A stretch of 64,000 nucleotides of DNA from an uncultured delta proteobacterium. Lineage in GTDB: Bacteria > Myxococcota_A > Polyangia > Fen-1088. Of the stretch, positions 8,267-58,310 are shown in pieces (the stretch's first letter is position 1; each line of letters begins with the position of its first letter). The notes beneath the pieces were generated by a model, which worked only from the letters and a program-made list of their open reading frames with translations, made no database searches and was not told the DNA's origin. The translations under genes were made by a program, and so were the position numbers. The stretch covers positions 6,308-70,307 of the forward strand of contig CAVWIP010000017.1 of the NCBI GenBank assembly GCA_963755125.1, in the 5' to 3' direction.

Positions 8267-8409
8267 GGGCACCAGCTTCGCAGATGGACAGCAAAGCGAC
8301 AACTTCTCATGTTCCCCAGCATGGTGCTATGCGACGACAGAGACGCCAGAGCTGTGCTTCATGGGCGGGGCCACACCGGCCCGACCGGAAATTCGGGGAT
8401 CGTCTACAG

Positions 8410-16616: not shown

Positions 16617-17981
16617 ATGCCTTCGGTTTTCAAACGCGGTGTTCGCTGGTACGCGAAATACAAGGACGCGACGGGGCGGTGGCGCACCCGGCCGACGACG
16701 GCCGACACCAAGACCGACGCCAAGCGGTTGGCCACTGACCTCGAACGCCAAGCCGAGCGCCACCGGCTCGGCTTGGAACCGCTCCCTACCGACGACGGCA
16801 CCACGCTCGGCGACTTGCTGAGCTGGTGGGAGACGACGTACTTCAAGCAGAGCCCCGCCTATGCGAAGAGCTGCGGCACATTCCGCCGTCACCTAGTCGG
16901 GTCCAACCTGTCGAAGAGCTCAATACGCGAAGTGACGACGGGCAGGGTGGAGCAGTTCATCCAGGCGAAGACGCGCGAGCTGGCTCCCCAGACAGTGAAC
17001 CACCTGCGCAGCTTCCTCTGTCGCGCCTTCAGCGCCGCCCGGCGCGCCGGCAAGGTCACCCAGAATCCGGTCCTCGACGTGAAATGTCGGCGCGTGCCCA
17101 AGCGCCTCCCAACGTTCCTGACCCTGGAGGAGGTTCCGCGCGTCCTGCTCGCGCTCCCCAGGCGCTGGCGGCCACTCTTCGCCACGGCCATCTACTCCGG
17201 GCTGCGCAAGGGCGAGCTGCTCGGGTTGCGGAAGACCGACGTGGATCTCCCGCGGCGGCTCATTAGCGTTTGCCGCTCGTACGCGCGCGACACCACCAAG
17301 GGCGGGCACGCGGAGGCGGTGCCCATCGCCTCCGAACTGGTGCCGTACCTCGAAGCCGCCATCAAACAGTCCTCGTCCGAGTTGGTCTTCCCAAACGAGG
17401 ACGGCTCGATGATGTCCGAGGAGGCGTCGCTCCAGGAACTGCTGCAGTCGGCGCTCGCCCGCGCCGGGATCGTGACCGGCTACAGCCACATCTGCCGACG
17501 GAAGGGATGCGGGCATTCCGAGGTGGCGAAGGACGCCGACCTGCGGCGTTGCCCGAAGTGCAAGATGAAGCTCTGGCCGCGGGCGCTGGTGCGGAAGATC
17601 CGCTTCCACGACCTGCGCCACACGACCGCGTCGTTGCTCATGATGGCGGGCGCGAATCCGGCGGCCGTTCAGCGCATCCTTCGCCACAGCGATCCGCGCA
17701 TCACGACTGAGGTTTACGGCCACCTGGCACCGGAATATCTCCGTCGAGAAATCGATCTCCTGTCCTTTGGCAAGCCCGTGAACGACACCGGAAACGCTTC
17801 CGCAAGCTCACCGAAAAACGATCCGTTTGGTGCATTAGTGGTACAAGAACCGAATGATGCACTGATCGGCGGATCCAGTGGATCTCGGAGCCCCCTGGAA
17901 ATGCAGGGGTTTTCGCTTGAGCGCGAGACGGGGCTCGGACCCGCGACCCTCGGCTTGGGAAGCCGATGCTCTACCAACTGA
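16617..17981 (+). CDS. tyrosine integrase (phage integrase family); 3' tail reads across tRNA-Gly on opposite strand
   Basis: catalytic R..HDLRHT..R..Y region (IRFHDLRHTTASLLMMAG, EVYGHLAPEY); no stop until 17981 so last ~60 codons overlap tRNA 17920..17992. Confidence 0.8.
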   Translation: MPSVFKRGVRWYAKYKDATGRWRTRPTTADTKTDAKRLATDLERQAERHRLGLEPLPTDDGTTLGDLLSWWETTYFKQSPAYAKSCGTFRRHLVGSNLSKSSIREVTTGRVEQFIQAKTRELAPQTVNHLRSFLCRAFSAARRAGKVTQNPVLDVKCRRVPKRLPTFLTLEEVPRVLLALPRRWRPLFATAIYSGLRKGELLGLRKTDVDLPRRLISVCRSYARDTTKGGHAEAVPIASELVPYLEAAIKQSSSELVFPNEDGSMMSEEASLQELLQSALARAGIVTGYSHICRRKGCGHSEVAKDADLRRCPKCKMKLWPRALVRKIRFHDLRHTTASLLMMAGANPAAVQRILRHSDPRITTEVYGHLAPEYLRREIDLLSFGKPVNDTGNASASSPKNDPFGALVVQEPNDALIGGSSGSRSPLEMQGFSLERETGLGPATLGLGSRCSTN

Positions 17982-17992
17982 GCTACTCGCGC
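17920..17992 (-). tRNA. tRNA-Gly(CCC), 73 nt, no encoded CCA; atypical T-loop TCCGAGC
   Basis: minus-strand GCGCGAG TA GCTC AGTTGGTA GAGC A TCGGC TTCCCAA GCCGA GGGTC GCGGG TCCGAGC CCCGT CTCGCGC T: 7-bp acceptor, D arm, anticodon CCC, U73 discriminator. Confidence 0.6.
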
Positions 17993-17993
17993 A
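17955..17993. repeat. 39-bp direct repeat (tRNA-Gly 5' half), left copy; putative att core
   Basis: identical to 58272..58310. Confidence 0.6.
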
Positions 17994-18026: not shown

Positions 18027-19256
18027 TTAGCCCCCGTTATGTGCCCCTGTAACCACAGCGTAACCAACGGTACCGTTCTGCGTCCCCGGACAGCCTATTG
18101 ATACCACGTCCCCACCGGAGTGCGAAAGGTCTACCCGGACGGCATCGAAGTCCTCTTCCTTGAAGTGCTCGGGTCGAAGATGCGCGTAGCGTTCCGTGGT
18201 GGTCACGCTGGCATGCCCAAGGATCTTGGAGAGCTTCTCCAGCGAGTGGCCATCCATCACCCACAGGCTCGCGAAGGTGTGCCTGGTGGCCTGGTACCAC
18301 GAGATGGGCGGTAGCTTGCAAGCCTTCAGCGCCTTCGCAAGGTTGCTTCGTAGGGAGTGGGCACGCATGAAGGTTGAGGGTCGCTTTGCCGTTCCCCCAC
18401 GCGTGGGACACGTAGGAACGAACAACATCCCCTCGCCTCCGGTCTTGAGCTTCCACCGCGCCAAGATGGGTGCCAGGGCATTCTGCAAGGGCACGATGCG
18501 GGGGTCGTCATCCTTGAGCGGGGCCAGCCTCCCGTCCTTCACCTGTTGTGTTACGTGGATTCGCCGGTTGGCTAGGTCCACGTCCTGCCAGGAGAGCCCC
18601 AGTACCTCGCCTGTTCTCAGTCCCGCCAGTGCCCCCACGGCGAACGCCACGTCGTAGGGCTCGCTCAAGGCCCGGAACACCCGTTCGACATCCGATATCT
18701 TCTCCAGGAATGGCGTGTTGGTGGTATCCAGCTTGGAGCGATACAGCCTTCGTACCGAACGAGGAAGCAGGGAGACAGGATTCACCCGTGCGAAGCCCTG
18801 TTCGATCACCTCCGCGAAGAAGGTGGAGAACAGGCGGATGCAATGTCCTACGGTTGTGGGGTGCATCCCCTCACTGAGCTTGCGTTCCACGAAACGGCGC
18901 AGGCTTGTCGAATCCACCTCGGTTGGCTTGCAGGCCCCGAAGAAGGGATCGAGATGCTTGCGCCATCGGCAACGATCATCGCGCCAGGCCCGATGAGTCT
19001 GCTCGCGCCGGTCGAGCCAGTCCTTGGCCAAGTTCTTCAAGCTCGGGGCCGTCTTGAGTTCGACGGGCATCCTATCCCGCCCTGCACGCGCATCTGCGGT
19101 GAGCACGTCCAGCATCTTCTTGGCTTCGTCCTCGGTGGGATACCCTCCCTTCGTGCACACCCGCCCTGCTACACGCCACTTGATCCAGAAGTTTCCGGGG
19201 CCGCGCTGGTAGACGCAGCCTTGCCCGCTGGGCCTTTTTCGTTTCTTTCGTGCCAT
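18027..19256 (-). CDS. tyrosine integrase (phage integrase family)
   Basis: start MARKKRKRPSGQG with AAGGAG RBS; R..HTFAS..R..Y catalytic region (ATRHTFASLWVMDG, TTERYAHL); 3' end 34 bp from tRNA 5' end. Confidence 0.85.
   Translation of the reverse strand: MARKKRKRPSGQGCVYQRGPGNFWIKWRVAGRVCTKGGYPTEDEAKKMLDVLTADARAGRDRMPVELKTAPSLKNLAKDWLDRREQTHRAWRDDRCRWRKHLDPFFGACKPTEVDSTSLRRFVERKLSEGMHPTTVGHCIRLFSTFFAEVIEQGFARVNPVSLLPRSVRRLYRSKLDTTNTPFLEKISDVERVFRALSEPYDVAFAVGALAGLRTGEVLGLSWQDVDLANRRIHVTQQVKDGRLAPLKDDDPRIVPLQNALAPILARWKLKTGGEGMLFVPTCPTRGGTAKRPSTFMRAHSLRSNLAKALKACKLPPISWYQATRHTFASLWVMDGHSLEKLSKILGHASVTTTERYAHLRPEHFKEEDFDAVRVDLSHSGGDVVSIGCPGTQNGTVGYAVVTGAHNGG
18044..18075. repeat. ~32-bp repeat cctgtaaccacRgcgtaaccaacggtaccgt (also 58126..58158; partial 58661..58690); encodes integrase C-terminus, candidate arm-type site
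   Basis: direct comparison of the three loci. Confidence 0.45.
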
Positions 19257-19368
19257 GGTCTCCGCTCCTTTCTTTGTCCGCGACCTGGACGAGACCAGCG
19301 GCGCAGGGCCTGTCCGTCCCGTCCTCGGTCCTGTTGCCCTGATAAAGATCCTCGACGCCTGACCAGAT

Positions 19369-19690
19369 TCAAGCTGATCGCAGCTTGGCCACCTTGTCGG
19401 CGATGGTCTCGCGGTCGGTTCCATGCAACCGCGCCATGTCCACGCGCACGGTGTTGCCGATCTTGACCGTCGGCACCTCGCCCCTCTTCACCCACCGGCG
19501 CATCGTGGGAACGCTGACCTTGAAGGCGGTAGCTGCTTCCGTGATGGTCACGAGGGCAGGGGGCAGGGCGGCCCGCAAGCTTTCCAGCTTGTCTGTGTTG
19601 TCGGTGACTGCACGCTCCAACGCCGCGAGCCGCGTGGGGATATCCCCCATGGCCGAGAACAAGGCAGCCAAGTTCTGCGTGTCGCTCATC
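19369..19690 (-). CDS. excisionase-family HTH protein
   Basis: C-terminal FKVSVPTMRRWVKRGEVPTVKIGNTVRV HTH; start MSDTQNL (alt. M14); adjacent to integrase. Confidence 0.5.
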
Positions 19691-26402: not shown

Positions 26403-26520
26403 CGCAGCTGCCGCAGGTGAGGTCAGGATGGCACTGTACGGTAACGATATCTTTGAGAGTGACGCTGCCTACGAACGATGTTTTGACGATGGAGTTGACC
26501 CGATTTGGTGGACGGTTTCG

Positions 26521-27405
26521 TTACGCAGCTTTCTTACCAGCTTTCTTCACTGAGTGCATCAGCTCAAATTCGATTGGGCTGTTGTAATTGAGCGCCGAAT
26601 GACGGCGGCAAGGATTGTAGAAGCCTTCGATGTACTCGCCAATCGAGAGGTTAGCTGCCTCCCAGCTTTCGAGATCGTCGATGTCTTCCAACTCGCGCTT
26701 GAGGGTCGCGAAGAAACTCTCGGCCACGGCATTATCCCAGCAGTCTCCCTTCCGGCTCATGCTGCATTCTATGCTTCCGGCTTCCAAGGCTTTGCGGTAG
26801 TCGTCGCTCGCGTACGTGCTGCCTCGATCTGAGTGGTGAACCAGGCCGCTGCCGGGCTGGCGTTGGCACAAGGCCATGGCCAGTGCCGCGAGCGCGAGGT
26901 GGCGATCGACATTCCGACTGGTCGCCCAGCCGACAACCCGCCTGGAAAACAGGTCGAGAATCACCGCGAGGTACAGCCAGCCTTGCTGCGTCCACAGAAA
27001 CGTGATGTCAGTGACCCACGACTGGTTTGGACGAAGCGCGGTGAAGTTGCGCTCCAGCACATTCGGCGCGATGGGGAAGCTGTGCTTCGAGTCGGTGGTC
27101 GTGCGAAAACGATGACGACAGCGCGCCACCAGCTTGTTTTCGCGCATCAGCCTGGCCACCCGCTTGCAACCCACCCGATCCCCGGAAGCTTTGAGGTCGG
27201 CATGAACACGGGGACTGCCGTATCGTCGCCGGCTCCCGTGATGAATCGCGGCTATCCGCTCGGACAGATCCTGGTCACGGCGTGCGTGCAACGAGGCGGG
27301 CCGTCCCTGGCTGGCGTAGTAGCCACTGGGCGAAACGGCCAAGACACGGCAGAGGACCGCGACGGGGAAGGCCACCTTCTCCTCGGAGATGAACGCAAAC
27401 CTCAC
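26521..27405 (-). CDS. IS3-family transposase OrfB (rve integrase core)
   Basis: HHSDRGSTYAS .. DNAVAESFFATLKRE DDE-region motifs. Confidence 0.85.
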   Translation of the reverse strand: MRFAFISEEKVAFPVAVLCRVLAVSPSGYYASQGRPASLHARRDQDLSERIAAIHHGSRRRYGSPRVHADLKASGDRVGCKRVARLMRENKLVARCRHRFRTTTDSKHSFPIAPNVLERNFTALRPNQSWVTDITFLWTQQGWLYLAVILDLFSRRVVGWATSRNVDRHLALAALAMALCQRQPGSGLVHHSDRGSTYASDDYRKALEAGSIECSMSRKGDCWDNAVAESFFATLKRELEDIDDLESWEAANLSIGEYIEGFYNPCRRHSALNYNSPIEFELMHSVKKAGKKAA

Positions 27406-27707
27406 GCGCTCTCCTTGGCGAAGAAGGTGGCCGCCCTTTTTAAAATCTCACGCTCCATGCGGAGGACTTTCACCTCGCGACGCAGATGCGAAAGTTCTTC
27501 CTTCTCGGCGGTCGTCAGGGCGCCAGCAGGGCCCTTGCCCTCGTCTACCCTCGACTGCCGATCCCACTGGTACACCAGGCTGCTTGCCACCCTGAAGTCC
27601 TTTGCTACCTGCGCGACGCTGCGTCCTGCACGGACGAGCGCCACCAAGTCTGCCTTGAACTCGCGCGTGTGCATGCGCCGGGATCGCTTCTTCTCTTTGT
27701 CCAACAT
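27402..27707 (-). CDS. IS3-family transposase OrfA (HTH)
   Basis: MHTREFKADLVALVRAGRSVAQVAKDF; -1 frame relation to orfB; candidate slippery run TTTTAAAAAG near junction. Confidence 0.8.
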   Translation of the reverse strand: MLDKEKKRSRRMHTREFKADLVALVRAGRSVAQVAKDFRVASSLVYQWDRQSRVDEGKGPAGALTTAEKEELSHLRREVKVLRMEREILKRAATFFAKESA

Positions 27708-28423
27708 GTGGTCACCTTTCTACGCCCATTTTCCTGAGCGAGGGTGTCCACCAAACCGGGTCAAGTCCACGAGAAGAAGCGGTTGTCCTCGATTGTCCTC
27801 CTCACGCTCCTCCAGAACCTTCATGATGTGATGGCCCTTGTCCTCAAGAAGGATCTCAACCTGGTTCCCAAAGAGGGCGCGCCCAAGCCCGCTCGGCTGA
27901 TGTACCACGCCATATGCCTACTGACTCGCTATCTCGCGAAAGAGGACATGCGCGACTTCGTCGCGCTCTGGGGGGCACAGCTTCACTACAAGGACAAGGA
28001 CTTCCGGGAGGAGGTTCGCCGGATCCTGAACTCGACCAAGAGTGGGATTCGCGCCGAATTGTCTCGGCAATTCATGTCGCTTGAGTCTGGGAGCGCGGAG
28101 CAGCTCAACGAGGCTTTTGATCGATGCAAAGCCGCTTTGAAACTCAAGGACGGCATCGATCCCTTCGAGACCTTCAAGGACCTAGATGAACAGGTGCCGG
28201 TGTTAGGGGAAGCTGATGATTGACTGAGGGGATCCCCGCATTTGGGAGTAGCAAGTGTTGATATTGTTGGGTCAGGGACCGGCGCGGTGGTGTGCAGGAG
28301 GTTGATGTTCTTGCCACCATCCACCGAGGCCCGCTGTTTTTCCGACGGTCGCTTCCAGGTATACTACCCCGCGTGGTTGATTGAGTGCCCATGGTTCCTG
28401 TCTCACGTGCAATCGGAGGCACC

Positions 28424-29551
28424 ATGTTGAAGGGTGTGTGTTCTGTCTTCGTGAAGCTGGCCATGGTGTTCGTGTTGGTATTCACCATCGGTGCAACCGG
28501 GTGCAGCGGTGGTAGCGGTGGCAGAGGAACGGATGCCGGCGGCGATGCGACTGGTGCTGCGACGCTGGAAGGGGTCTTCGTGCCGACGGGCAGCCTGACC
28601 GTGGCTAGGTTCGGCCAGACGGCGACGCTGTTGGGCAACGGGATGGTGCTCATTGCTGGCGGGGCTGGTTCGAGCGCGGAGCTGTACAACCCAAACGCCA
28701 GAACGTTCACCCCCACCAGCAGTATGACAACGGCAAGACAGAGCCATACGGCGACGTTGTTGCCGAACGGGATGGTGCTCATCGCTGGCGGAGATGAACT
28801 CGCCAGCACCGAGCTATACGACCCAAACGCCCAGACTTTCACCGCCACCGGCAACATGACCGTGGCGAGACAGGGGCACACAGCCACGCTGTTGCCGAAC
28901 GGAATGGTCCTCATCGCTGGCGGAGACGAACTTGGCAGCACCGAGCTATACGACCCCAATGCCGGGACTTTCACCGCCGCCGGGAACATGGCCGAATCCA
29001 TGCATACGGCAACGTTGTTGCCCGATGGGGAAGTGCTCATCGCCAGCAGCTACGCTGGCGGCGTGAATGCCGAGTTGTACGACCCAGTGGCCGGGACATT
29101 CACGGCCACAGGTAGCCTGTCGACGGCGAGGGAAGGCCACACGGCATGTTTGCTGCCTAACGGCAAAGTGCTCATCGCCGGCGGACGGAATTACGATAAC
29201 AGCGGCTCGCTGCAGTTCCTTGCGAGCGCGGAGCTATACGACCTGACAGTCGGGGCATTTGCGCCAACCGGCACGATGTCTGTACCAAGGCAGTACCACA
29301 CGGCGACGTTGCTGACGAGCGGGAAGGTGCTCATCGCCGGCGGACTCAGTGACGGCGGGGATCTCGCAAGCGCGGAGCTATACGACCCAGAGGCTGGGGC
29401 ATTTGGAGCAACCGGCAGCATGTCCGTAGCAGGGGCATGGCACACAGCGACGTTGTTGACGAGCGGGAAGGTGCTCATCGCCGGCGGCGGCTTTGCCGAT
29501 TACGAGACTCTCTTGCTCACGCCCCTCGCAAGCGCGGAGCTGTACGAATAG
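28424..29551 (+). CDS. Kelch-repeat beta-propeller lipoprotein, paralog 1
   Basis: GGAGG RBS + ATG shared with paralog 2; lipobox FTIGATGC; ~7 repeats AELYDPxxGTFTxTGxMxxARxxHTATLLxNGxVLIAGG. Confidence 0.65.
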
Positions 29552-29600
29552 CGGCGACAGTCGGTGCCAACGGAAGAGCTACAGCTACGTCAGGGAAGGA

Positions 29601-29720
29601 CAATCGGGCACTCTTCGTTTGGTACCGAGTAAGCTACAGATACTGGGTCCCCTTTCCCCAAACGTACCCACGGTTATCCATGCACCGGGGGGGTATGTCA
29701 ACGGCGGCGGGAAAAATGCG
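29601..29720. repeat. conserved 3'-flank element copy A (shares ~100 bp with 33771..33900)
   Basis: gggacaatcgggcaYtcttcg..gggtcccctttc..ccatgcaccggggg..atgtc..cggcgg. Confidence 0.5.
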
Positions 29721-29968
29721 AGCTACTTGATCCAGAACACACGTGACGCATGATTTCCGGCCAAGTTGAACATAATTCGGTGCGCTGCAGATCGTGGTGT
29801 CGGTGGTCTGGCCATGTGAGCGGGAACACCTGGGACAGGTGGCAAGAGCAGCCTTCGATACAGCCGGGAATGGTAAGGGACCACATCACACACATCGTCG
29901 CCAGAGCTTGCGAGAAACGGCGTGCGGAGGGAAGCTAGGGCCGGATAAAAAGTTCGAAAGGGCTGAGG

Positions 29969-30490
29969 GTGATCCCCATTCACATAAGCGGTACACAGCC
30001 CGAAGTTCATGCCTCGACGATTGCAGTCGTGCCCGAAGGGGCAACCACGCCGCGCAAGCTTACGGAGCCGCTGACAAACCCCAAGGGCAGCATCGTGTTT
30101 CAGCCACGAGACTGCTATTTTCGCGCCTGTGATCCCTCTGATGCAAATGGTTGGGTCCTCTCGATATATGTCTTCCCCATTCGAAAGGTGCCGCCATGCC
30201 AATACGTGGATGGTGAATGCGTCTGTGATGTGGCGATCGATCACTTGAACGGACCGCTTGCTTGCGTCATGCGTCTCAAGGTGGTCAGGCTGCAGAACGA
30301 GAATGTCTTTCTTGGGCTGGCGATGAATCGGGCAGTCCTGTCATTTCCGAGCAGCTCCGGCTGGATGATTAATGGGCCGGGTGACTATACCGCTGCCAAG
30401 AAGGGCCATGTTCTGATGGCATGCTACCCTCGCAATTCCATTCCTGTCGTCGGCCGACCATCTCTCGATCGAAGCATAACCAAGGGGTGA
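29969..30490 (+). CDS. hypothetical protein, low-GC islet
   Basis: 173-aa ORF; Cys-containing; no motif; GC lower than surroundings. Confidence 0.3.
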   Translation: MIPIHISGTQPEVHASTIAVVPEGATTPRKLTEPLTNPKGSIVFQPRDCYFRACDPSDANGWVLSIYVFPIRKVPPCQYVDGECVCDVAIDHLNGPLACVMRLKVVRLQNENVFLGLAMNRAVLSFPSSSGWMINGPGDYTAAKKGHVLMACYPRNSIPVVGRPSLDRSITKG

Positions 30491-30611
30491 ACCCATTGCA
30501 GCAGACGGGCTTGCCGCAGGGAAACCGGTGTAGAGTTGCACCGTTCCGAGCACGCCTTGGCCTCCCAACCTGTGGTGACCGGGTGGCACCTACGAAACTC
30601 TGGAGCGCAGG

Positions 30612-31760
30612 ATGAACGAAGATGGCAGAATTCGACGACTACGGCCGGAGGCACTGCACTTTTTTGATGCGAATTTCCTCATTCTTCCAGCGGCTGACCT
30701 TCCCACGCTGAAGAATGTTCCACTCCAATCTCGTTGGATCACAGAAACCGTTCTCCAGGAGGTCCTGGAGCGGCTCGGCCCAGGAGCACAGGAGGCAGTC
30801 GACGCGGAATTTCATACACTGGGATTCCATGACCTGTATGCCAAGGACCCCCGAGTGTGCCCCGTGTTTTACTGGTATGTCCTCGCGATGTACAATCCTG
30901 CCACTGTAGGCAGTGATAGTTTCGTCGATGACCTATTCGAGTCGATGCTAATCAAGAACACCGTGACGCAGGCGGATCGCGACCAGTATCAGGAGTTTCG
31001 CCGCCAAATAGCCAATAGTCAATCCCGCAATCCCAATGGCGACCCAGTTCTCCAGGGCCTTGAGCGCATGGCAGCACGAATGCGGAAGAAGGCAAGGCGC
31101 TCATTGCAAGACAAGCATCCGGCATATCTGCGCGACATCAAGAGTCTCGGCCTGATCCTGTACCACGCTCTGTCTTCAAGGCAAAATATCGTCTACCACA
31201 CGTCCGATGGCGACCCGGTGATATTGCTTCTCAAGTGGCTCGATTCGATGGCCACGTGGACGACCCTGACCCACGCTGTGCTTTCCAGGTTGACCGCCTT
31301 GGACAAACAGCTCATCTTGCGAGGTGGTTCAGTCGACGTTGTCCTTGATTTCGCGGAATTCGTCCGCGAGAAGTCTCGGCTATTCTTCGGTTTCCTCAAT
31401 GACCGACACAAGACCAAAGCTTGCCGTTTCACGATCAAGCACTGGAATCAGGCGGAGCGGAAACTCGATGAGGACGTGTATGTGTGGTTCGATGATCGGG
31501 TTGCCGCCGGCCTAGCGAACTCACACGGCACACTATCGTGCCCATGGACCATCAACGCTGAACTCGGCAACTGGCTTCAGATACACTACGATTGGCCTCC
31601 AGATGAGGCGCACCAAGGCCAACTATGCGTGCACGTCAAGCGGAAGCGAATCATTAACCGCACATCGACTTCTATCACGCCTTCGGAACATGACCGGTTG
31701 TGCGCCTATCGGCAGGATGACGTAAACGGCAGGATTCACCACTGGTCGCAGTTCCTTTAG
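30612..31760 (+). CDS. hypothetical protein, low-GC islet (N-terminus weakly PIN-like)
   Basis: 382-aa ORF; LHFFDANFLIL near N-terminus resembles PIN strand-1 motif (weak). Confidence 0.4.
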   Translation: MNEDGRIRRLRPEALHFFDANFLILPAADLPTLKNVPLQSRWITETVLQEVLERLGPGAQEAVDAEFHTLGFHDLYAKDPRVCPVFYWYVLAMYNPATVGSDSFVDDLFESMLIKNTVTQADRDQYQEFRRQIANSQSRNPNGDPVLQGLERMAARMRKKARRSLQDKHPAYLRDIKSLGLILYHALSSRQNIVYHTSDGDPVILLLKWLDSMATWTTLTHAVLSRLTALDKQLILRGGSVDVVLDFAEFVREKSRLFFGFLNDRHKTKACRFTIKHWNQAERKLDEDVYVWFDDRVAAGLANSHGTLSCPWTINAELGNWLQIHYDWPPDEAHQGQLCVHVKRKRIINRTSTSITPSEHDRLCAYRQDDVNGRIHHWSQFL

Positions 31761-32570
31761 GCTGGAGTGATTGGCTTGTGTGCGCGTGATGAGGCCGACC
31801 GCAAGAGAGAAGCGAAGTGGTGGTTCATGCGCCGGCTCCCTGGACAAGTGCTGCCTCGGGACTCCCGGTAGCACGAGTCGTCCATGATCGGCGGCGGAAA
31901 AACACAAGACAGCGAATCCCATATCCAGCAACTCCATGTCCCTGGTGCTGCAGATCTTGATCTCCACCACCCAGACCAACTGCCACCTCGTTTGTCGGGG
32001 ATGGATGACGGCACATGCTCCTCCACGTTCTCTGCCGACAGCACCTGCTGAAGCATCATTTCGCGGCGGGGACAAAGATCAAGCGTGGCATCAGCCACTA
32101 CGATCTTTGTGCTCGACCAATCTGCCGTTCGATCTGACCAGACCCGGCTCTTGATGACCTGAACATGGGTTCTGCTCTTGTAACGCAGCAAGCGACTGGC
32201 TCTTGTACGCGGGGAAGAGAAGATGAATAATTTCCAGCAGATACGGCTACCCCTCCCGCAGATTTCAGGTCTCGCCTTATATAAGATAAGGCGACAGTCG
32301 GAAAGTGCGGGAGCCCTGTAGTCCCCTTCTCCCGCGTACAAAGCCAGACCACCTGGGTCCCGCCCTCTAAGTCCGACAAGAACGGCGGAGAGGGAGGAGG
32401 AATATGATCATGCGATGCCGTCACGGCCAGTTGATCCCAGGAGGGCGATGTTCCTGACCTGACCCCCATGGTCATCCACCTGTTTTCTCTCCGGCTGTTT
32501 CCAGATACACTACCCCAGGATGGGTGATAGAGCATCCAGGGTTCCTGTCTCACGTTCAATCGGAGGCACC

Positions 32571-33734
32571 ATGTTGAAGGGTGTGTATTCTGTGCTTGTG
32601 AAGTTGATCGTGGTGTCCGTGTTGGTATTCACCATCGGTGCAACCGGGTGCAGCGGTGGTAGCGGTGGCAGAGGAACGGATGCCGGCGGCGATGCGACTG
32701 GTGCTGCGACGCTGGAAGGGGTCTTCGTGCCGACGGGCAGCCTGACCGTGGCGAGAGGGAGCCACACGGCGACGTTGCTACAGAATGGAACAGTTCTCAT
32801 CGCCGGCGGAGCCTACGATTTTGAGGGCCTTCCGGAAGGTGAGATGAGCGCGGAGGTATACGACCCAGGGACAGGGACATTCACCGCCACTGGCAGCATG
32901 ACCGTGGCAAGGTGGCAGCATACGGCAACCTTGTTGGGCAATGGGGAGGTGCTAATTGCCGGCGGACTTGGCGCTAGCCCAGATAGCGCGGAGCTGTACG
33001 ACCCGAGCCTCGGCACGTTTACATCCGCGGGCCGGATGACCGTGGCAAGATATGGCCACACGGCGACGTTGATGGGGAACGGGGAGGTTCTGATCAGCGG
33101 TGGACAGTCTGTTGCGGGTGGCAACTACCTCTCTAGCGCGGAGCTATATGATCCGGTGGCTGGGGTATTTACTCTGACGGGGGCGATGACCGTAGAACGG
33201 TATGGTCACACGGCTGCGCGGCTGACCGATGGCAAGGTGCTCATCGCGGGCGGGTACGATAACAGTGGAGCCCCCCTCGCCAGCGCAGAACTATATGGCC
33301 CTAGCACTGGAGCATTTTCAATAACCGACAGCATGATTTCGGCGAGGGCGTACCAAACGGCTACGGTGTTGGGCAATGGGGATGTGCTTATCGCTGGCGG
33401 AACCGATGGAACCGACACCAATTGGAATGCCATCGCGAATGCGGAACTGTACAACCCGGCGGCCGGCACATTTACCACGACAGGCGGTCTAACCGTAGCA
33501 CGGGGCATGCACACAGCGACATCGTTGCTCCTGGGGACGGTACTCATCGCCGGCGGATACGACGGCACCAGTGGACTTGCGAGTGCTGAGCTATATGACC
33601 CAGCGTTCGGGACATTCACGGTTACCGGCAATATGACTGTGGCAAGGACGGAGCACACGGCGACGTTGCTGGGTAACGGGAAGGTTCTCGTCGCAGGCGG
33701 AAGCGGCGATACCAGTGCGGAACTATACGAATAA
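32571..33734 (+). CDS. Kelch-repeat beta-propeller lipoprotein, paralog 2
   Basis: first ~55 aa and 5' UTR near-identical to paralog 1; same repeat motif; same C-terminal AELYE. Confidence 0.65.
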   Translation: MLKGVYSVLVKLIVVSVLVFTIGATGCSGGSGGRGTDAGGDATGAATLEGVFVPTGSLTVARGSHTATLLQNGTVLIAGGAYDFEGLPEGEMSAEVYDPGTGTFTATGSMTVARWQHTATLLGNGEVLIAGGLGASPDSAELYDPSLGTFTSAGRMTVARYGHTATLMGNGEVLISGGQSVAGGNYLSSAELYDPVAGVFTLTGAMTVERYGHTAARLTDGKVLIAGGYDNSGAPLASAELYGPSTGAFSITDSMISARAYQTATVLGNGDVLIAGGTDGTDTNWNAIANAELYNPAAGTFTTTGGLTVARGMHTATSLLLGTVLIAGGYDGTSGLASAELYDPAFGTFTVTGNMTVARTEHTATLLGNGKVLVAGGSGDTSAELYE

Positions 33735-33770
33735 ACCCCGACAGCCAGCGACAGCCGAAGAGTCATAGCC

Positions 33771-33960
33771 CCATTAGGGAGGGACAATCGGGCATTCTTC
33801 GCTTGGTGCTCAGTAAGCTATCGAAACCGGGTCCCCTTTGATTCGCGCACCCACCATCATCCATGCACCGGGGGCTCCGATATGTCGGCGGCTGAAAAAT
33901 TCCGGGGCAAAAATTCAAGCCGGCTATCCAGCTTGAACCTGGAGACACGAACGTCTCCAT
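33771..33960. repeat. conserved 3'-flank element copy B incl. hairpin GGAGAC acgaac GTCTCC
   Basis: aligns with copy A (5' part) and copy C 37241..37400 (3' part). Confidence 0.5.
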
Positions 33961-33971
33961 CTCCCCTTTGA

Positions 33972-34583
33972 TCAGTTTCGCACTCGCTGGCGGGAGACAG
34001 GAATCTCAAGCTGTGCTCGTTCTGCCAGTTCATGCCCCAGCCGACGGCAACGAGACCAGGCTCGCTCGGTTCTGATACCCAGCCGTCTTGCAATGCTCTT
34101 CAACCTGTGACCAGCCATTTTCATGGACAGCAGAGTTTGATCATCCTCAGGCAAGCTGGCAATCCAGGCTTCCAGGTCGATGGCTGATACGATCTTCCTG
34201 ACCGGATTCGCAGCCAGAGATTCCGCCAGCCCCAGCAACCTGCACTCTTCTTTCTCCTGGAGAATTTGATCGAGCCTGAGAACCTCCACCTTGCCCTCGA
34301 TGTAGTTGCGCAAGTCCATCACACAGCCTTTTCGAGCTTTGCCACCAGCGGGAACAATCTGACGGCTCAAATCCTCAGCACGAAGCCGGGCAGCAAGAAC
34401 AAGAATAGCATCATCCGGAATCTCCCCCCTCTCTGCATGCCGACGGTACTGTTGATACACGAGAGCAAGTGCATCTTGGGTTCTGTCTTCCGCCATGTCG
34501 GCATGAAGCCGGCGGGTGATAGGCTTGAACATGCCACTGCGGATTTTCTGGTCAAAGCACGAACGGATTGTCTCGATATTCAT
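33972..34583 (-). CDS. ECF-type sigma-70 family factor (putative)
   Basis: GGAGG RBS; region-2-like DALALVYQQYRRHAERG and C-terminal HTH LKSIARRLGIRTERAWSRCRR. Confidence 0.45.
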   Translation of the reverse strand: MNIETIRSCFDQKIRSGMFKPITRRLHADMAEDRTQDALALVYQQYRRHAERGEIPDDAILVLAARLRAEDLSRQIVPAGGKARKGCVMDLRNYIEGKVEVLRLDQILQEKEECRLLGLAESLAANPVRKIVSAIDLEAWIASLPEDDQTLLSMKMAGHRLKSIARRLGIRTERAWSRCRRLGHELAERAQLEIPVSRQRVRN

Positions 34584-34816
34584 GGTCAGGACCTCCGTAG
34601 GCGTGCACACACGGAGGGCCTTGTGGTCCACGTGGCGCACAGTTGCGCCAGTGGGCGCGTGGGGTAACAGTGTCAGTCAGGCCAACACTGTGGATTACGG
34701 TGCAAATGCACCGTTGAGGGCTGAAGAGCCGCTCCTCACTATACTTATACCCGAATTGCGGGTGGGATTTTCAGGGGGGATTGCTTTGGTCCAACGCCAA
34801 TCCCTCGGCACCAATT

Positions 34817-36931
34817 TCAGGAACCACTGCCCAGGGCAGGGCATATCTGATCAGACGCCGGACAGGTCAGACACGTCAGCGCGAGCAGCGTGCCTGGAGG
34901 CGCCAGCGGCGCAGTGCTCGGTCGCAGAACAGTGATTCTCTGGTTCATAAATGCGTTCGGGCAGCCCGTGGTTCGATCCGCATCGTAGTAGAGGTACCAG
35001 CAAGGCCGAGCGCTGTCCGGGACGTTGGCCAGCAGGGGATTTGTGGGATCCAGCGGGAGTTGGGTAGTGGGATCTATGCACTCGGTGAGAGTTTCTTGCG
35101 AGTAGCCAGTTGTCAGACACCCATTTTGGCCCGGCGTGGTGCACCCGCTGTCGTAGACAACCTGGCATTCAGGCTGCACGCCAGGTGCATTTGGGTTCGT
35201 GTCGATCAACGGGTACTGCACGCAACCTGGACTCAGCGCCTGCGAGATCGCCTCACCAATTTGGGTCATCGCGTCCGTGAAGTCCTGGTTGCAGATGCTG
35301 AAACGCTGTCCGTTGGCGCCGAAGGCACTGACGAACTTGTTATGGCGAAGACCGCCGTAGGCTTTGTAGATGTTGCCGTCAGAGGCCTGCACAGTGGGAT
35401 TCCAGCAAATGGGCATGTAGTCCCAATAGGTGTTCTCTGGGGCCGGGAGCGACGTGGTGTCAACCCCGATCCTGTATTGATCCGTGGTCTGGACATTGGG
35501 CAAGGCAGTGTCCGGGGGCCAGCCGAAGATGCCAGACACGAGGATCTGGGTCTGGGGATTGCCCTTGACACCGTTGACGCTGTCGATGATGTCCCGCACG
35601 TCGATGAGCGGAAGGTAGGTGGAGTCCAGATTGTTCCTATCGAGCTGCTCCTTGTCCGTGCAATCGGAAAATGGGTGCATGAACCCCAAGGCGCCAGTTC
35701 CAGGTCCAACGTTGGGCGTCGGGGCCGGGTTCTGCGGGGTGAAGCCGTTCACGGGGTCGTAGCCAGGGATTGGTTGGCCACCGCAGAGATGGCCCCGAGC
35801 CGCGCATTTCAGGCTGGCGGTTTCCCCAGGGGGCCTGGTCAGGAACATGCCATCGTTATTGTTGCCGTTTTGGGCTACGTCGGCGACTGGAGCAGAGCAA
35901 TCATCCTCGTCGGTGATGAGCACAATGGCCAGGTATGCCTCGGGACGCAAGAAGCCGACGTTCTCCATGTTGATATCGGTGCAGTTATTGCCTTGGGCGT
36001 TGCAATTCACCTGTTGGGGGTTGAGTGCGACTTGAATCGATTGCAACTGGTGCTCGTAACCGCAGCCCGCGATTCCCACGGACTGGGCGAGGCAGGTGAA
36101 GACGTCCGTAAGCTGGCCGGTGTAGTTCTGCGCCCGCCCAACCCCGTTCGCATTCGCAACATCTGAGATCCACCGGGCACCCGAGTTGAGGCCGCACCCG
36201 TTGGGTGTGGGGTAGGTTGAAATTTGACCGGGGGCGGTCGAATATAGCGTATTGCCGGGCGCGACCGAGGCAATCAGGTTGTTGGGATCGTTTCCCCACA
36301 AAAGGCCGCGATCGCCCAGAACCCGTGAGCAGTTACCGCCGATATTGTCCGAGCCAGCCCCCATGTCGCTGCTGATGACGCCGATGTGGACGTCGGGCAA
36401 ACTTACAGCTGTGCCCGAAGGGTCCAAAGGGTCTGGAAGGTTCTGCAGTACCTGGATCATCTTGGGGAAGTTGGCAGCCAGTGCCTGCTGCTTGGGATCC
36501 ATCGAAGGGGAATTGTCGATCATGAACAAGATGTCGACTTCGCGGCTGACCAAGACGGTGAAGGAGGTCAATGGGAAAATATCGACTGCGTTCGTCACGG
36601 CCTCGCTTGCGCTGGTCACGCCACCGGCTGCGCTGGTCACGCCACCGACTGGGCCCGTCGTGCCACCGGCTGCTGGGCCCGTCGTGCCACCGGCTGCTGG
36701 GCTCGTCGTGCCACCGGCTGCTGGGCTCGTCGTGCCACCGGCTGCTGGGCTCGTCGTGCCACCGGCTGGGCCCGTCACGCCTCCGGGGGCTACTGTCGCA
36801 CCCCCAGGATTCGCGCTGGCGTCGTTGGGTAGGCTGGTGCCTGCCAACGGATCGGACATGCATGCGGCCGACAAGCCTGTGAGCAGGAGTGCGGCCAGCG
36901 AGCCTTGACTGCTGCGAGTGTGGTTTCTCAT
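34817..36931 (-). CDS. VWA-domain lipoprotein with N-terminal GGTTSPAA tandem repeats
   Basis: lipobox LLTGLSAAC; MIDAS DxSxS motif LFMIDNSPSM; many Cys. Confidence 0.6.
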   Translation of the reverse strand: MRNHTRSSQGSLAALLLTGLSAACMSDPLAGTSLPNDASANPGGATVAPGGVTGPAGGTTSPAAGGTTSPAAGGTTSPAAGGTTGPAAGGTTGPVGGVTSAAGGVTSASEAVTNAVDIFPLTSFTVLVSREVDILFMIDNSPSMDPKQQALAANFPKMIQVLQNLPDPLDPSGTAVSLPDVHIGVISSDMGAGSDNIGGNCSRVLGDRGLLWGNDPNNLIASVAPGNTLYSTAPGQISTYPTPNGCGLNSGARWISDVANANGVGRAQNYTGQLTDVFTCLAQSVGIAGCGYEHQLQSIQVALNPQQVNCNAQGNNCTDINMENVGFLRPEAYLAIVLITDEDDCSAPVADVAQNGNNNDGMFLTRPPGETASLKCAARGHLCGGQPIPGYDPVNGFTPQNPAPTPNVGPGTGALGFMHPFSDCTDKEQLDRNNLDSTYLPLIDVRDIIDSVNGVKGNPQTQILVSGIFGWPPDTALPNVQTTDQYRIGVDTTSLPAPENTYWDYMPICWNPTVQASDGNIYKAYGGLRHNKFVSAFGANGQRFSICNQDFTDAMTQIGEAISQALSPGCVQYPLIDTNPNAPGVQPECQVVYDSGCTTPGQNGCLTTGYSQETLTECIDPTTQLPLDPTNPLLANVPDSARPCWYLYYDADRTTGCPNAFMNQRITVLRPSTAPLAPPGTLLALTCLTCPASDQICPALGSGS
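36595..36790. repeat. 24-bp in-frame tandem repeat (~7 copies) encoding GGTTSPAA
   Basis: ccggctgctgggctcgtcgtgcca repeated. Confidence 0.6.
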
Positions 36932-37240
36932 GACCTTACCTAGTCCCCGAACACCAATCGACCTTACAAACGACATCAAAGAAACCAGAAACTGACGCCC
37001 AGGCAAAGCTGGGCTTCGATTCGCGGCAAGGCTGCCAGACGGGGGCTGCCCTGGCCATGTCGTCGCGAGTGTTTGGCGCGACCGGCCACAGGAAGGTGCG
37101 CAGCAAGGGCGCAGCTCGGCCCATTACGCCGACTTGCTTCTGCTCCGGTGCGCGAGTGGGAGCCCGGCCAAGGCTCCCCAGGATGGGGCCAGGTCGCTGT
37201 GTTTCTGGTCTAACCGGTTGTGGGAGGCGGAAGGTCCTGC

Positions 37241-37400
37241 GGTGAATAAGCTATGGGAACTGGGTCCCCTTTGATCCGGGTGTCCACCGTCGCACGCACA
37301 CCGGGGGTGGGGTATGTTGGCCGTTGGAAAAATTTTGGGGCAAAAATTCAAGCCAGCCGGGCCAGCTTGAACCCGGAGGCAGGCTCGCCTCCATCATTAG
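37241..37400. repeat. conserved flank element copy C incl. hairpin GGAGGC aggctc GCCTCC
   Basis: stem differs from copy B by paired A>G / T>C substitutions. Confidence 0.5.
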
Positions 37401-37585
37401 ATCAGGTACCGGAAGCCGCGGCCATCTTCAAAGTGAGCGTGGCGACCATGCGCAGATGGGTCAAGACCGGCCACGTTTCGGTCGTGAAACTGGCAAACAC
37501 GGTCCGTGTTGACCTGCCCCGAGTCCACGGCGTCGATGCGGCGGACGTCGCACGGATGGCCAGGGAGGCACGGGCTCGACGCTGA
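37400..37585 (+). pseudogene. truncated excisionase-like HTH gene (paralog of 19369..19690)
   Basis: IFKVSVATMRRWVKTGHVSVVKLANTVRVDL matches xis HTH; N-terminal half replaced by repeat copy C; no ATG upstream. Confidence 0.3.
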
Positions 37586-37699
37586 AGGCTATCGGTAGGC
37601 GATCCTATCCCGTCCCCAATTCACTACCGACAGTGGGCCCCCTTCGTCGAAGATGCCCACTGTCGTCCGTGCACCAAGGGCAAGGTGTGTCCGCGGGCA

Positions 37700-38965: not shown

Positions 38966-41538
38966 CTAGGATTCCCGTCCGAGCTGCCCCGGGCTGGTAC
39001 GGTTCGGTCCTCGTCGGCGCTTCCCTCCTCCATCCTTGGGGCCAGCCAAGTGCTCCAGAGCGAATTCATACAGGAAACGCGCACTCGTGTATGCAGCGTA
39101 CCGTTGATAGTCGTCCCCCTTTGCGGAGTCCCCGAAATCGCAAACTGACTTGACAGACATAGCCGCAGGCCGCGGTTCCCTACAGTGCGCCGCCGCCACG
39201 AAAACGGCGTAGGTCTCCATCTCGACGCCGATGACCTTGCGGTTTCTTCGAACGATGTCCTCCATGACCGTCCTGTCTGCGACGACGGAGGCCCCAGACG
39301 CGATGGGACCGATCTGAGCGCTGAGTTCAAACCGCGGCCGGGTTCCTGGCCATTTCCCAGATATCCCCGCGAGCATCTTCCCATCGAGCCGAAACTGCCC
39401 CAATCTCGCCTTGAGGACTGGATCTAGTGGCAATGGCGAAGGAGATGGAGCGAAGCGACTCCCGCTACCGGCAACAGCTGTAACCTTGCCCGCACCGTAG
39501 TCCCACGACTGGTCGGCAATTAGGATGTCGCCGAAATTGCCCTCCACGCCGGCTGCTATCCCCGCCATCGCCAAGTACCGCGGCCGGAAGCGCTCCACGA
39601 TCTTCATAGCCAGAACAGCCGTAGCGGGCATGCCAACATCGCCCGTAGCAGCTGCGACGACCCGCATCCGCTTACCCGAACGGGTAAAGACTCCACAGTG
39701 GTAGATAGCGCTGTCGCCCTTAAAGCTCTTTTCCTTCCATTTCCCTGGCAGGTTCAACACCGCCTGCAACTCTACGGCCTCCAGAGCGGTCATGATCGCC
39801 ATGTCGACCGGCCCGCTGGGCGCATCACGACCGAAAACCTCATCAACTATGTATACCAACTTCTGTCCAAGTGGAGTTGACCCGATTTGGTGGACGGTTT
39901 CGTTACGCAGCTTTCTTACCAGCTTTCTTCACTGAGTGCATCAGCTCAAATTCGATTGGGCTGTTGTAATTGAGCGCCGAATGACGGCGGCAAGGATTGT
40001 AGAAGCCTTCGATGTACTCGCCAATCGAGAGGTTAGCTGCCTCCCAGCTTTCGAGATCGTCGATGTCTTCCAACTCGCGCTTGAGGGTCGCGAAGAAACT
40101 CTCGGCCACGGCATTATCCCAGCAGTCTCCCTTCCGGCTCATGCTGCATTCTATGCTTCCGGCTTCCAAGGCTTTGCGGTAGTCGTCGCTCGCGTACGTG
40201 CTGCCTCGATCTGAGTGGTGAACCAGGCCGCTGCCGGGCTGGCGTTGGCACAAGGCCATGGCCAGTGCCGCGAGCGCGAGGTGGCGATCGACATTCCGAC
40301 TGGTCGCCCAGCCGACAACCCGCCTGGAAAACAGGTCGAGAATCACCGCGAGGTACAGCCAGCCTTGCTGCGTCCACAGAAACGTGATGTCAGTGACCCA
40401 CGACTGGTTTGGACGAAGCGCGGTGAAGTTGCGCTCCAGCACATTCGGCGCGATGGGGAAGCTGTGCTTCGAGTCGGTGGTCGTGCGAAAACGATGACGA
40501 CAGCGCGCCACCAGCTTGTTTTCGCGCATCAGCCTGGCCACCCGCTTGCAACCCACCCGATCCCCGGAAGCTTTGAGGTCGGCATGAACACGGGGACTGC
40601 CGTATCGTCGCCGGCTCCCGTGATGAATCGCGGCTATCCGCTCGGACAGATCCTGGTCACGGCGTGCGTGCAACGAGGCGGGCCGTCCCTGGCTGGCGTA
40701 GTAGCCACTGGGCGAAACGGCCAAGACACGGCAGAGGACCGCGACGGGGAAGGCCACCTTCTCCTCGGAGATGAACGCAAACCTCACGCGCTCTCCTTGG
40801 CGAAGAAGGTGGCCGCCCTTTTTAAAATCTCACGCTCCATGCGGAGGACTTTCACCTCGCGACGCAGATGCGAAAGTTCTTCCTTCTCGGCGGTCGTCAG
40901 GGCGCCAGCAGGGCCCTTGCCCTCGTCTACCCTCGACTGCCGATCCCACTGGTACACCAGGCTGCTTGCCACCCTGAAGTCCTTTGCTACCTGCGCGACG
41001 CTGCGTCCTGCACGGACGAGCGCCACCAAGTCTGCCTTGAACTCGCGCGTGTGCATGCGCCGGGATCGCTTCTTCTCTTTGTCCAACATGTGGTCACCTT
41101 TCTACGCCCATTTTCCTGAGCGAGGGTGTCCACCAAACCGGGTCAAGTCCAAAGTTTCTCCGCCCAGTCGTTCGAGCTTTCCTCATACTTAACCAGGTGC
41201 CACAGGCTCGCCTCGAAGTCGCCACGGTATTGATCGCGAAGATCATCAAAGGCAGTAAGCCCCACGATGTGCCCTGGTCGGATAGCACCTCCCCGCTTCT
41301 TGAACCGAATCATTACCGTCATCCCGCCGTCCGATCGCGCTGGTTCGCCACGTCGGACTGGCAACTTCAAGTCGATAATGAGGAGATCAAACCGCTGTCG
41401 CGTCATGGCCTGCGTGGCATCATTTGCCGTGGTCGCAACCTCCACGATCAGATTCTCTTCCGCGACGAAAGCATGCAGGGTCTGGATGACAGCGTCCACC
41501 TTCCGCCGGTTGTCATCGGCAATAAGTACTCTAATCAT
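38966..41538 (-). pseudogene. dtcC: dtcC-like REC-PNP effector gene interrupted by IS3 copy 2 (REC 41152..41538 | PNP-like 38966..39871)
   Basis: REC MIRVLIADD..LLIIDLKLP; PNP/MTA-nucleosidase-like MRVVAAATGDVGMPATAV..VIGVEMETYAVF; frames join as ..AEKL|GQKLVYIVDEV.. after removing IS and one TSD. Confidence 0.55.
39872..41151 (-). mobile_element. IS3-family insertion sequence, copy 2 (identical to copy 1)
   Basis: same IRs; 3-bp TSD aag (39869..39871, 41152..41154); contains orfB 39903..40787 and orfA 40784..41089. Confidence 0.85.
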
Positions 41539-58271: not shown

Positions 58272-58310
58272 TTGGGAAGCCGATGCTCTACCAACTGAGC
58301 TACTCGCGCA
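58272..58310. repeat. 39-bp direct repeat (partial tRNA-Gly 5' half), right copy; putative attR
   Basis: identical to 17955..17993; tRNA similarity stops after anticodon loop. Confidence 0.6.

Follow-up and report, generated by a model that had tools for sequence, protein, structure and literature searches.

The stretch of DNA considered here, referred to as the window, comprises 64,000 nt (G+C 61%) of contig CAVWIP010000017.1 from an uncultured delta proteobacterium (Myxococcota_A; Polyangia; Fen-1088; assembly GCA_963755125.1). Its central part carries two Kelch lipoprotein genes, Kelch A and Kelch B, and four copies (A to D) of an intergenic core repeat, two of which are followed by a pair of small hairpins that lie next to the end of a convergent gene (Table 1). 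An earlier note on this DNA had described Kelch-lipoprotein cassettes with conserved 5' and 3' flanks, and had proposed that the 3' element is a structured RNA or a recombination site that may shuffle variable propeller cassettes. The source genome was read over this window, to which its copy counts refer. Comparisons were made with related contigs, numbered L001 to L042, of which L001 (GCA_049590665.1) belongs to a related strain and L011-L042 come from peat and fen sites; genes around the metagenome loci were found by heuristic open reading frame (ORF) calling.

Table 1. Coordinates of features in the window (UTR, untranslated region; ECF, extracytoplasmic function)
Feature	Position	Strand	Evidence or remark
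Left 39-bp direct repeat, 5' half of tRNA-Gly	17955-17993		
Tyrosine integrase, left end of island	18027-19424		
Leader A: putative promoter TATACT, 5' UTR with GGAGG, signal peptide and lipobox Cys, Gly/Thr-rich linker	28334-28608	+	
Kelch A, 7-bladed Kelch beta-propeller, probable lipoprotein, 375 aa	28424-29551	+	Pfam Kelch_3/4/6, seven blade repeats
Kelch-paralog-specific 3' flank, copy A	29552-29624	+	Alignment to Kelch-linked copies only (profile positions 2-70)
Core repeat, copy A	29625-29709	+	nhmmer E 2.5e-16; followed by an 'A-type' right part without hairpins 1 and 2
Leader B	32480-32755	+	Similarity to leader A
Kelch B, 7-bladed Kelch beta-propeller, probable lipoprotein, 387 aa	32571-33734	+	Pfam Kelch, seven blade repeats
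Kelch-paralog-specific 3' flank, copy B	33735-33807	+	Aligns only with Kelch-linked copies
Core repeat, copy B	33808-33891	+	nhmmer E 3.2e-46 for 33808-33975
U-rich tract (minus-strand reading) and hairpin 2, copy B (hairpin 33914-33937, TTCAAGC..GCTTGAA)	33892-33937	-	
Hairpin 1, copy B, GGAGAC (33941-33946)/GTCTCC (33953-33958)	33940-33959	-	12 nt past sigma-like stop codon
Divergent ECF-sigma-like gene, 222 aa; TGA stop adjoins hairpin 1	33972-34640	-	Weak TIGR02937 sigma70-ECF match, E 4e-4
Secreted 729-aa protein with PAAGGTTS repeats, upstream of sigma-like gene, same strand	34817-37006	-	
Core repeat, copy C, no Kelch gene	37243-37324	+	nhmmer E 1.8e-47
Hairpins 2 (37347-37371) and 1 (37375-37392), copy C	37347-37392	-	
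HTH_17/excisionase-type ORF	37364-37585	+	Pfam HTH_17 E 2.7e-5; PHROG MerR-like and excisionase matches
Core repeat, copy D, divergent, without hairpins 1 and 2	37616-37697	+	nhmmer E 7.8e-11
Right 39-bp direct repeat	58272-58310		100% identical to left

Downstream of the two Kelch genes the intergenic DNA is alike, positions 29555-29715 (A) and 33739-33899 (B) being 73% identical, and a second alignment relates B (33814-33961) to C (37247-37395) at 76% identity. The conserved element that the earlier note saw after each Kelch gene does exist in this sense, but copy A has no hairpin region and carries instead the 'A-type' right part that it has in common with L012/L020, L014, L028 and L026. 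The third copy that it reported without a Kelch gene is copy C, and copy D is a fourth, found beyond those three (E 9.5e-8 in an earlier profile search) and adjoining the stop codon of an HNH gene (37700). The motif CCCCTTY..CCAC..CACCRRGGG has four matches in the window against 0.00 expected from 100 shuffles. The 3' element is a composite intergenic junction with three layers, namely a paralog flank, the core repeat and the hairpins. The alignments show the first ~75 nt past each Kelch stop codon to be an ordinary flank shared by paralogs.

The core, of ~85 nt, reads CAGTWAGCTAC..GGGTCCCCTTTG..CCCAC..CACCGGGGG..GGTATGTC and was found in related Polyangia/Myxococcales metagenomes in no fewer than 23 different contexts, most of them without a Kelch gene upstream. 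Most copies in the profile search start at CAGTWAGCTAC and lack the Kelch-specific first ~70 nt. The strict core motif matched 23 metagenome contigs and had no match in the GTDB representative genomes or in the IMG/VR viral contigs; blastn of the element against plasmids and phages gave no match, and a search of Rfam returned only tRNA-Gly at the gathering threshold, with nothing in 28-38 kb at E<=5. Across 23 aligned distinct cores, taken from the window, metagenome contigs and two GTDB metagenome-assembled genomes (MAGs), GGGTCCCC, CCCAC and CACCGGGGG (CACC.GGGG) are invariant or nearly so, and such strict conservation suggests that the three blocks bind a protein or have another role under selection. 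An A/U-rich tract always accompanies the core, which lies at gene-module junctions in mobile/defence islands, mostly between convergent genes. Its left neighbours are diverse (lipoproteins, GmrSD, HD-CE proteins and others), and in at least 11 of ~15 assessable contexts the core comes shortly after the end of a plus-strand gene. Copies of type 1 continue rightward with an A-rich tract, hairpin 2, hairpin 1 and an invariant TCAG, and in all of them a minus-strand gene ends at the right edge with its TGA stop codon inside the TCAG.

The hairpin region folds better on the minus strand, with an alifold consensus of -24.1 kcal/mol versus -10.6 kcal/mol on the plus strand and the more stable minus-strand fold in 15 copies out of 15. 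In the window, copy B reaches -35.2 kcal/mol (z -3.98) on the minus strand versus -26.2 on the plus strand, and copy C -30.6 kcal/mol (z -2.28) versus -24.7 (z -0.47). An 18-sequence minus-sense alignment (a 13-sequence version was also used) had 95.8% of its cells paired, and six pairs (17 cells) were changed on both sides; none of 500 shuffles reached this double-change covariation, and slid registers used as controls were at most 50% paired. G-U pairs are frequent at three positions, where the Kelch strand would have A-C mismatches, and they occur at two positions in the stem of hairpin 2. Hairpin 1, which begins 8-20 nt past the TGA of the convergent minus-strand gene, covaries; between copies B and C a single compensatory change from an A-T to a G-C pair turns GGAGAC/GTCTCC into GGAGGC (37375-37380)/GCCTCC (37387-37392), as the earlier note had observed. 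Hairpin 2 (TTCAAGC..GCTTGAA) sits beside it and its arms are nearly invariant. Because of the G-U asymmetry and the neighbouring stop codon the hairpins were assigned to the convergent transcript, and the folds show them as minus-strand features of the convergent gene and not of the Kelch gene.

On the minus strand of copy B the 11-12-bp stem of hairpin 2 is followed by UUUUUGCCCC, and in nearly all copies UUUU(A/U)GCCCC..AAUUUUU stands 3' of hairpin 2. L013 has, past an HU-like gene of the minus strand, a different hairpin with the same U-tract and core behind it. The hairpins most likely form the 3' end of the convergent minus-strand unit, as a terminator of intrinsic type; we infer for them a putative Rho-independent-type terminator or 3'-stabilising role. 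As in known intrinsic terminators there is a stable stem-loop on the sense strand directly past the stop codon, with compensatory and G-U changes. A U-rich tract follows, but it is short and interrupted; unlike known terminators, moreover, there are here two tandem hairpins and a hairpin 2 whose sequence is itself conserved, and the activity is putative.

Two kinds of convergent gene stand to the right of the core. A sigma-like gene is the right neighbour in copy B of the window and in L015, L023, L024a, L030, L021, L033, L034 and L035, and a nuclease-Rad52-VWA-bpMoxR-DUF6744 operon in L016/L024b, L032, L025, L019, L017 and L011. The sigma-like protein of the window had no match in Pfam or PHROGs and gave only weak sigma-region-4 signals, which are backed by distant homologs, some of them annotated as sigma24 with Sigma70_r4. 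The family is lineage-restricted, with 68 homologs, and its members beside the cores have 203-222 aa. Behind homologs of 63-75% amino-acid identity hairpin 1, hairpin 2 and the U-tract are found again; the core is adjacent to them in L039, lies 1.3 kb off in L037/38 and is absent in L040-42. The nuclease is of PD-(D/E)XK/Cas4-like type (Pfam PDDEXK_1 in L025) and is the last gene of a long operon. This minus-strand operon is conserved in L025, L032 and L019, where it encodes the PD-(D/E)XK nuclease, a Rad52-like annealing protein, VWA, bpMoxR AAA+ and a DUF6744 protein. It is similar to MoxR-vWA modules of conflict systems or mobile elements, and the hairpins at its end have the design seen behind the sigma-like gene. 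The order copy B, sigma-like gene, 729-aa protein, copy C in the window is syntenic with that of copy a, sigma-like gene, 721-aa protein, copy b in L024.

The Kelch genes themselves bear out a good part of the earlier description. Both have multiple Pfam Kelch matches (E 1e-22 to 1e-34) and a signal peptide that ends at the lipobox Cys. The paralogs had been said to share the 5' UTR and the N-terminal codons, to diverge in the propeller and to end alike in AELYE*: leaders A and B are 89.5% identical over 276 nt, with a long run free of any mismatch across the signal peptide and linker, the proteins outside the leader have 58% amino-acid identity, and SAELYE* is the C-terminal end of both. Over the 62 aligned codons at the 5' end the synonymous distance dS is 0.106, versus 1.30 in the propeller, which shows that the leader was homogenised recently, by gene conversion or recombination. 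The ratio of non-synonymous to synonymous change (dN/dS) in the propeller is 0.28 with saturated dS, because of which the propellers are judged to be old, under purifying selection and free of active diversification. The protein collection lacks the exact Kelch A and B proteins, and the closest Kelch homologs in it have only 55% identity.

A leader of the Kelch type is also found in front of a Kelch paralog in L020, of three unrelated lipoproteins rich in Cys (L001, L024 and L035) and of one other protein (L001b). It is a module of its own, which defines a predicted lipoprotein family including both Kelch genes. Between such a leader and the core with its hairpins, facing a sigma-like gene, lies a slot that is filled by Kelch B in the window and L015 and by Cys-rich proteins in L024 and L035.

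Comparison of closely related copies revealed abrupt mosaic junctions. L025 and L030 (~98% identical) and L019 and L033 (100%) match over the left flank, core and hairpin 2 and diverge abruptly at hairpin 1, with nuclease genes on one side of the comparison and sigma-like genes on the other. Positions 37243-37409 of the window, which include copy C, are 98% identical to L016/L024b over 167 nt and have unrelated flanks on both sides; beside copy C, GATCAGGTAC (37400-37409) corresponds to the last two codons and stop codon of the PD-(D/E)XK nuclease, the rest of the gene being absent there. In L034 and L037/38 an insert lies between two copies of hairpin 2.

These observations are probably best accounted for, although well short of certainly, by a composite junction made up of a dispersed core repeat and terminator-like minus-strand hairpins and reworked by ordinary recombination. 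The core is a lineage-specific dispersed repeat whose main effect would be that of a portable homology block where recombination swaps the neighbouring modules, and hairpins 1 and 2 would close the sigma-like or nuclease transcripts as a terminator or 3'-stabilising end. Leader and core bracket a slot that holds different lipoprotein genes in different genomes, a variation that would arise by ordinary homologous recombination between dispersed repeats and require no dedicated shuffling machine. Module exchange probably uses the repeats as blocks of homology, and homologous recombination or gene conversion at dispersed repeats is the simplest mechanism.

Several points weigh against this account. 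The near-invariant blocks of the core imply a putative selected function that a role as homology block leaves unexplained, and hairpin 2 hardly varies in the sequence of its outer 7 bp, beyond pure structural need, which could mean sequence-specific recognition. Breakpoints that recur at one precise junction would fit site-specific recombination as well. The U-tract is short and interrupted (4-6 U, GCCCC, 5 U), and a simple terminator scan of the region flagged neither hairpin; termination is predicted from the sequence. On the plus strand there is a weak core helix, GGUCCC/GGGGGY, and some of the metagenome pairs are possibly affected by assembly breaks at the repeats.

The recurrent breakpoint is one ground for supposing that hairpin 2 and the core form a site-specific recombination site, like attC or att in function and unrelated to them, at which a recombinase would stack and exchange modules (lipoprotein, sigma-factor, nuclease) as part of an undescribed exchange system of myxobacterial mobile/defence islands. 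Two independent pairs have their junction at one identical spot (..GCTTGAACCCCG / hairpin 1), the inserts of L034 and L037/38 have a copy of hairpin 2 on either side, the arms of hairpin 2 hardly change while hairpin 1 covaries freely, same-orientation arrays occur in the window, L024, L028 and L034, and the neighbourhood contains an integrase, an HTH of excisionase type and an HNH gene. However, crossovers between homologous repeats would cluster at hairpin 2 in any case because it is the longest near-identical stretch, and hairpin 2 fits a terminator stem with its U-tract; moreover no recombinase consistently co-occurs with the copies, the modules stand in both orientations, and there is neither an attC-like single long hairpin nor a GTTRRRY or RYYYAAC box. 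This explanation is unlikely, though less so than those that follow. It is a little less probable again that the core is an RNA element of the plus strand, a 3'-UTR structure or a site bound by protein, which serves the plus-strand gene upstream (Kelch or another lipoprotein) and insulates the convergent units together with the minus-strand terminator. The plus-strand genes that so often end just upstream would suit such a role, as would the helix GGUCCC/GGGGGY, which is 96% paired and rich in G-U (at two positions, where the other strand would have A-C) and has one C-G to U-A double change, in L035. Against it, 53 of 500 shuffles reached the covariation of this helix, the core folds no better than shuffled sequence (z +1.3 to +1.5), its consensus energy is only -7.5 versus a mean single-sequence value of -29.5 kcal/mol, and in copy C and L024b the gene to the left runs on the minus strand.

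The reading closest to the earlier note, in which the element is a structured RNA of the Kelch 3' UTR or a dedicated site for shuffling propeller cassettes, is improbable, and more so than either of these. It draws on the conserved leader and 3' element that flank both Kelch genes, on the other lipoprotein genes found in the same slot elsewhere and on L001, where a Cys-rich lipoprotein with a related leader stands in for Kelch B. The search for further copies and conserved structure that the note had asked for gave, in the window and related metagenomes, at least 23 distinct cores and hairpin covariation across 18 copies, but most copies lie away from Kelch genes and a device tied to them at the 3' end did not survive. 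The structured RNA survived only in part: the hairpin is conserved, but it is on the opposite strand, tied to the convergent gene, and copy A has none. The proposed recombination site fared similarly, in that the flanks coincide with recombination junctions and the contents of the slot differ, but no mechanism dedicated to shuffling propellers is indicated; the propellers, with their low dN/dS and saturated dS, give no sign of active diversification, and no recombinase is specifically linked to the cassettes. Spread of the unit by transposition, as a non-autonomous element such as a MITE (miniature inverted-repeat transposable element), an IS200/IS605-type palindrome-associated transposable element (PATE) or a repetitive extragenic palindromic (REP)-like sequence, is the least probable explanation of all. 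The discrete 167-nt unit with unrelated flanks in the window and L016, the many contexts and the subterminal hairpin at one end would be expected of it, but there are no terminal inverted repeats (score 8 versus a shuffle mean of 5.9, with 48 of 500 shuffles at or above the observed value), the junctions of the 98%-identical unit in copy C and L016 show no target-site duplication, and a MITE was rejected on both counts. Boundaries also vary between subfamilies, and there is no associated Y1 or DDE transposase, the two IS3 copies of the region being unrelated insertions.

Among known systems the repeat comes closest to those of the SPRITE and REP/BIME (bacterial interspersed mosaic element) kind. 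It is likewise a short (~100-160 nt), lineage-specific, interspersed intergenic repeat with a terminator-like stem-loop, it occupies many unrelated intergenic contexts and it is biased to the 3' ends of genes that converge. It differs in having no sequence relationship to them and no Rfam match, in belonging to a host from a different phylum, the Myxococcota, in its modular make-up (core, U-tract, hairpin 2 and a gene-specific hairpin 1), in a non-palindromic core and in an occurrence so far confined to mobile/defence islands. Recombination, mRNA stability and the binding of IHF have been linked to clusters of REP/BIME elements (PMC3184786; see also PMC3049150). As bacterial repeats go, the present one is new, but of a fairly ordinary kind.

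Lipoprotein families with a conserved leader and a variable mature part include the Mycoplasma vlp/vsp genes and the Borrelia erp/mlp genes with their upstream homology boxes. As in those, a conserved promoter, 5' UTR and signal peptide are joined here to divergent or unrelated mature domains, with a leader kept homogeneous by recombination; unlike in those, no phase-variation device such as a homopolymer, invertible promoter or silent cassette array was seen, and the genes lie in a mobile island of a soil myxobacterium. Integron cassettes with their attC sites offer a repeated structured site at gene 3' ends, same-orientation arrays and junctions recurring at a hairpin, but the present element has two local hairpins and an unstructured core in place of a single imperfect hairpin with R''/R' boxes, its modules comprise several genes in both orientations, and its site sequence is conserved whereas that of attC is not. 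An integron was rejected, as there is no IntI, only generic Phage_integrase ORFs lie 10-20 kb away, and the boundaries misfit the RYYYAAC/GTTRRRY boxes. A diversity-generating retroelement was rejected also; the substitutions between A and B and between B and C are of all types and not adenine-specific, and there is no reverse transcriptase among the island ORFs scanned.

Other origins of the core were tried and discarded. The element is non-coding, since its copies differ by 1-nt indels and contain in-frame stops; ARAGORN found nothing there and there is no similarity to tRNA-Gly, so a tRNA-like origin was rejected; a sigma-70 promoter scan of the element found nothing; and a reading as an ECF-type GAAAC-N18-CGTG promoter was discarded, as conservation is higher in the 'spacer' than in the supposed boxes.

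For the uncultured Polyangia of peat and fen, in which hardly any repeat elements have been described, the analysis adds a family of interspersed repeats not described before and a leader that lipoprotein genes have in common. These repeats are markers of module exchange in mobile/defence islands and should be useful for delimiting cargo hotspots, and they help to explain why short-read MAG assemblies break at these sites. A more general lesson is that a covarying hairpin beside a gene need not belong to that gene. If the recurrent junction at hairpin 2 were to prove a site-specific crossover, the interest of the element would be considerably higher.

All four copies lie inside an island of ~40.3 kb bounded by 39-bp direct repeats, which represent the 5' half of a tRNA-Gly(CCC) through the anticodon loop; duplication of the 5' rather than the 3' half of a tRNA is unusual. 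The genes after the integrase encode DUF3631 and AIPR proteins, and the island also carries an HNH endonuclease, PNP_UDP_1, GH88, an impB/mucB-type polymerase and the excisionase-type HTH. The 5' end of the latter ORF runs into copy C; no canonical start codon is present between hairpin 1 of that copy and the HTH, and the ORF is probably truncated or fused. A second Phage_integrase ORF at 16617-17981 (+), on the far side of the tRNA, overlaps the tRNA-Gly gene at 17920-17992 (-) by about 60 nt, which recalls the myxophage Mx8, with attP inside int, and suggests a second integrated element to the left.

The Kelch region is bracketed by two 100% identical 1280-bp copies of an IS3-family insertion sequence in direct orientation (26490-27769 and 39872-41151). 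A composite transposon was considered and rejected, since each copy has its own 3-bp target duplication, CGA and AAG respectively, and the two were therefore inserted independently. The pair is a ready substrate for deletion of the 12-kb segment between them. The related strain L001 shares positions 29696-32652 at 98% identity, up to the leader of Kelch B; it then has its Cys-rich lipoprotein and about 5 kb of other genes versus ~26 kb in the window (32652-58900), and homology resumes at an HU-like gene (58901) and a serpin gene (62970).

Some smaller features of the region may be recorded. Copy D has its own perfect 10-bp hairpin (GACAGTGGGC/GCCCACTGTC) at 37629-37664, between the convergent HTH and HNH genes, with a fold z of -2.4 to -3.0, and this hairpin extends a 3-4-bp complementarity (UGGG/CCCA) seen in all cores. 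The motif CGCGGTGGTGTGCAGGA(G/C)G occurs at 28283-28301, upstream of the Kelch A leader, and again ~65-100 nt upstream of several cores (left flanks of L016, L025 and L030) as a small dispersed block. Another repeat family, of ~97-106 nt and 92-97% identity, is present in L030 (three copies), L021 (five copies) and L011, where it lies at 8225-8337 just upstream of the core. Tandem 24-nt repeats at 36625-36789 (minus strand) encode the PAAGGTTS-type units of the 729-aa protein, which also has a faint MIDAS-adhesin match. The sigma-like homologs of L037-L042, including the flanks of L039, adjoin genes of defence or conflict systems (BrxL, SEFIR/TIR, a type I restriction subunit, SbcCD and PNP_UDP_1), and in the window the family stands alongside HNH, PNP_UDP_1 and AIPR.

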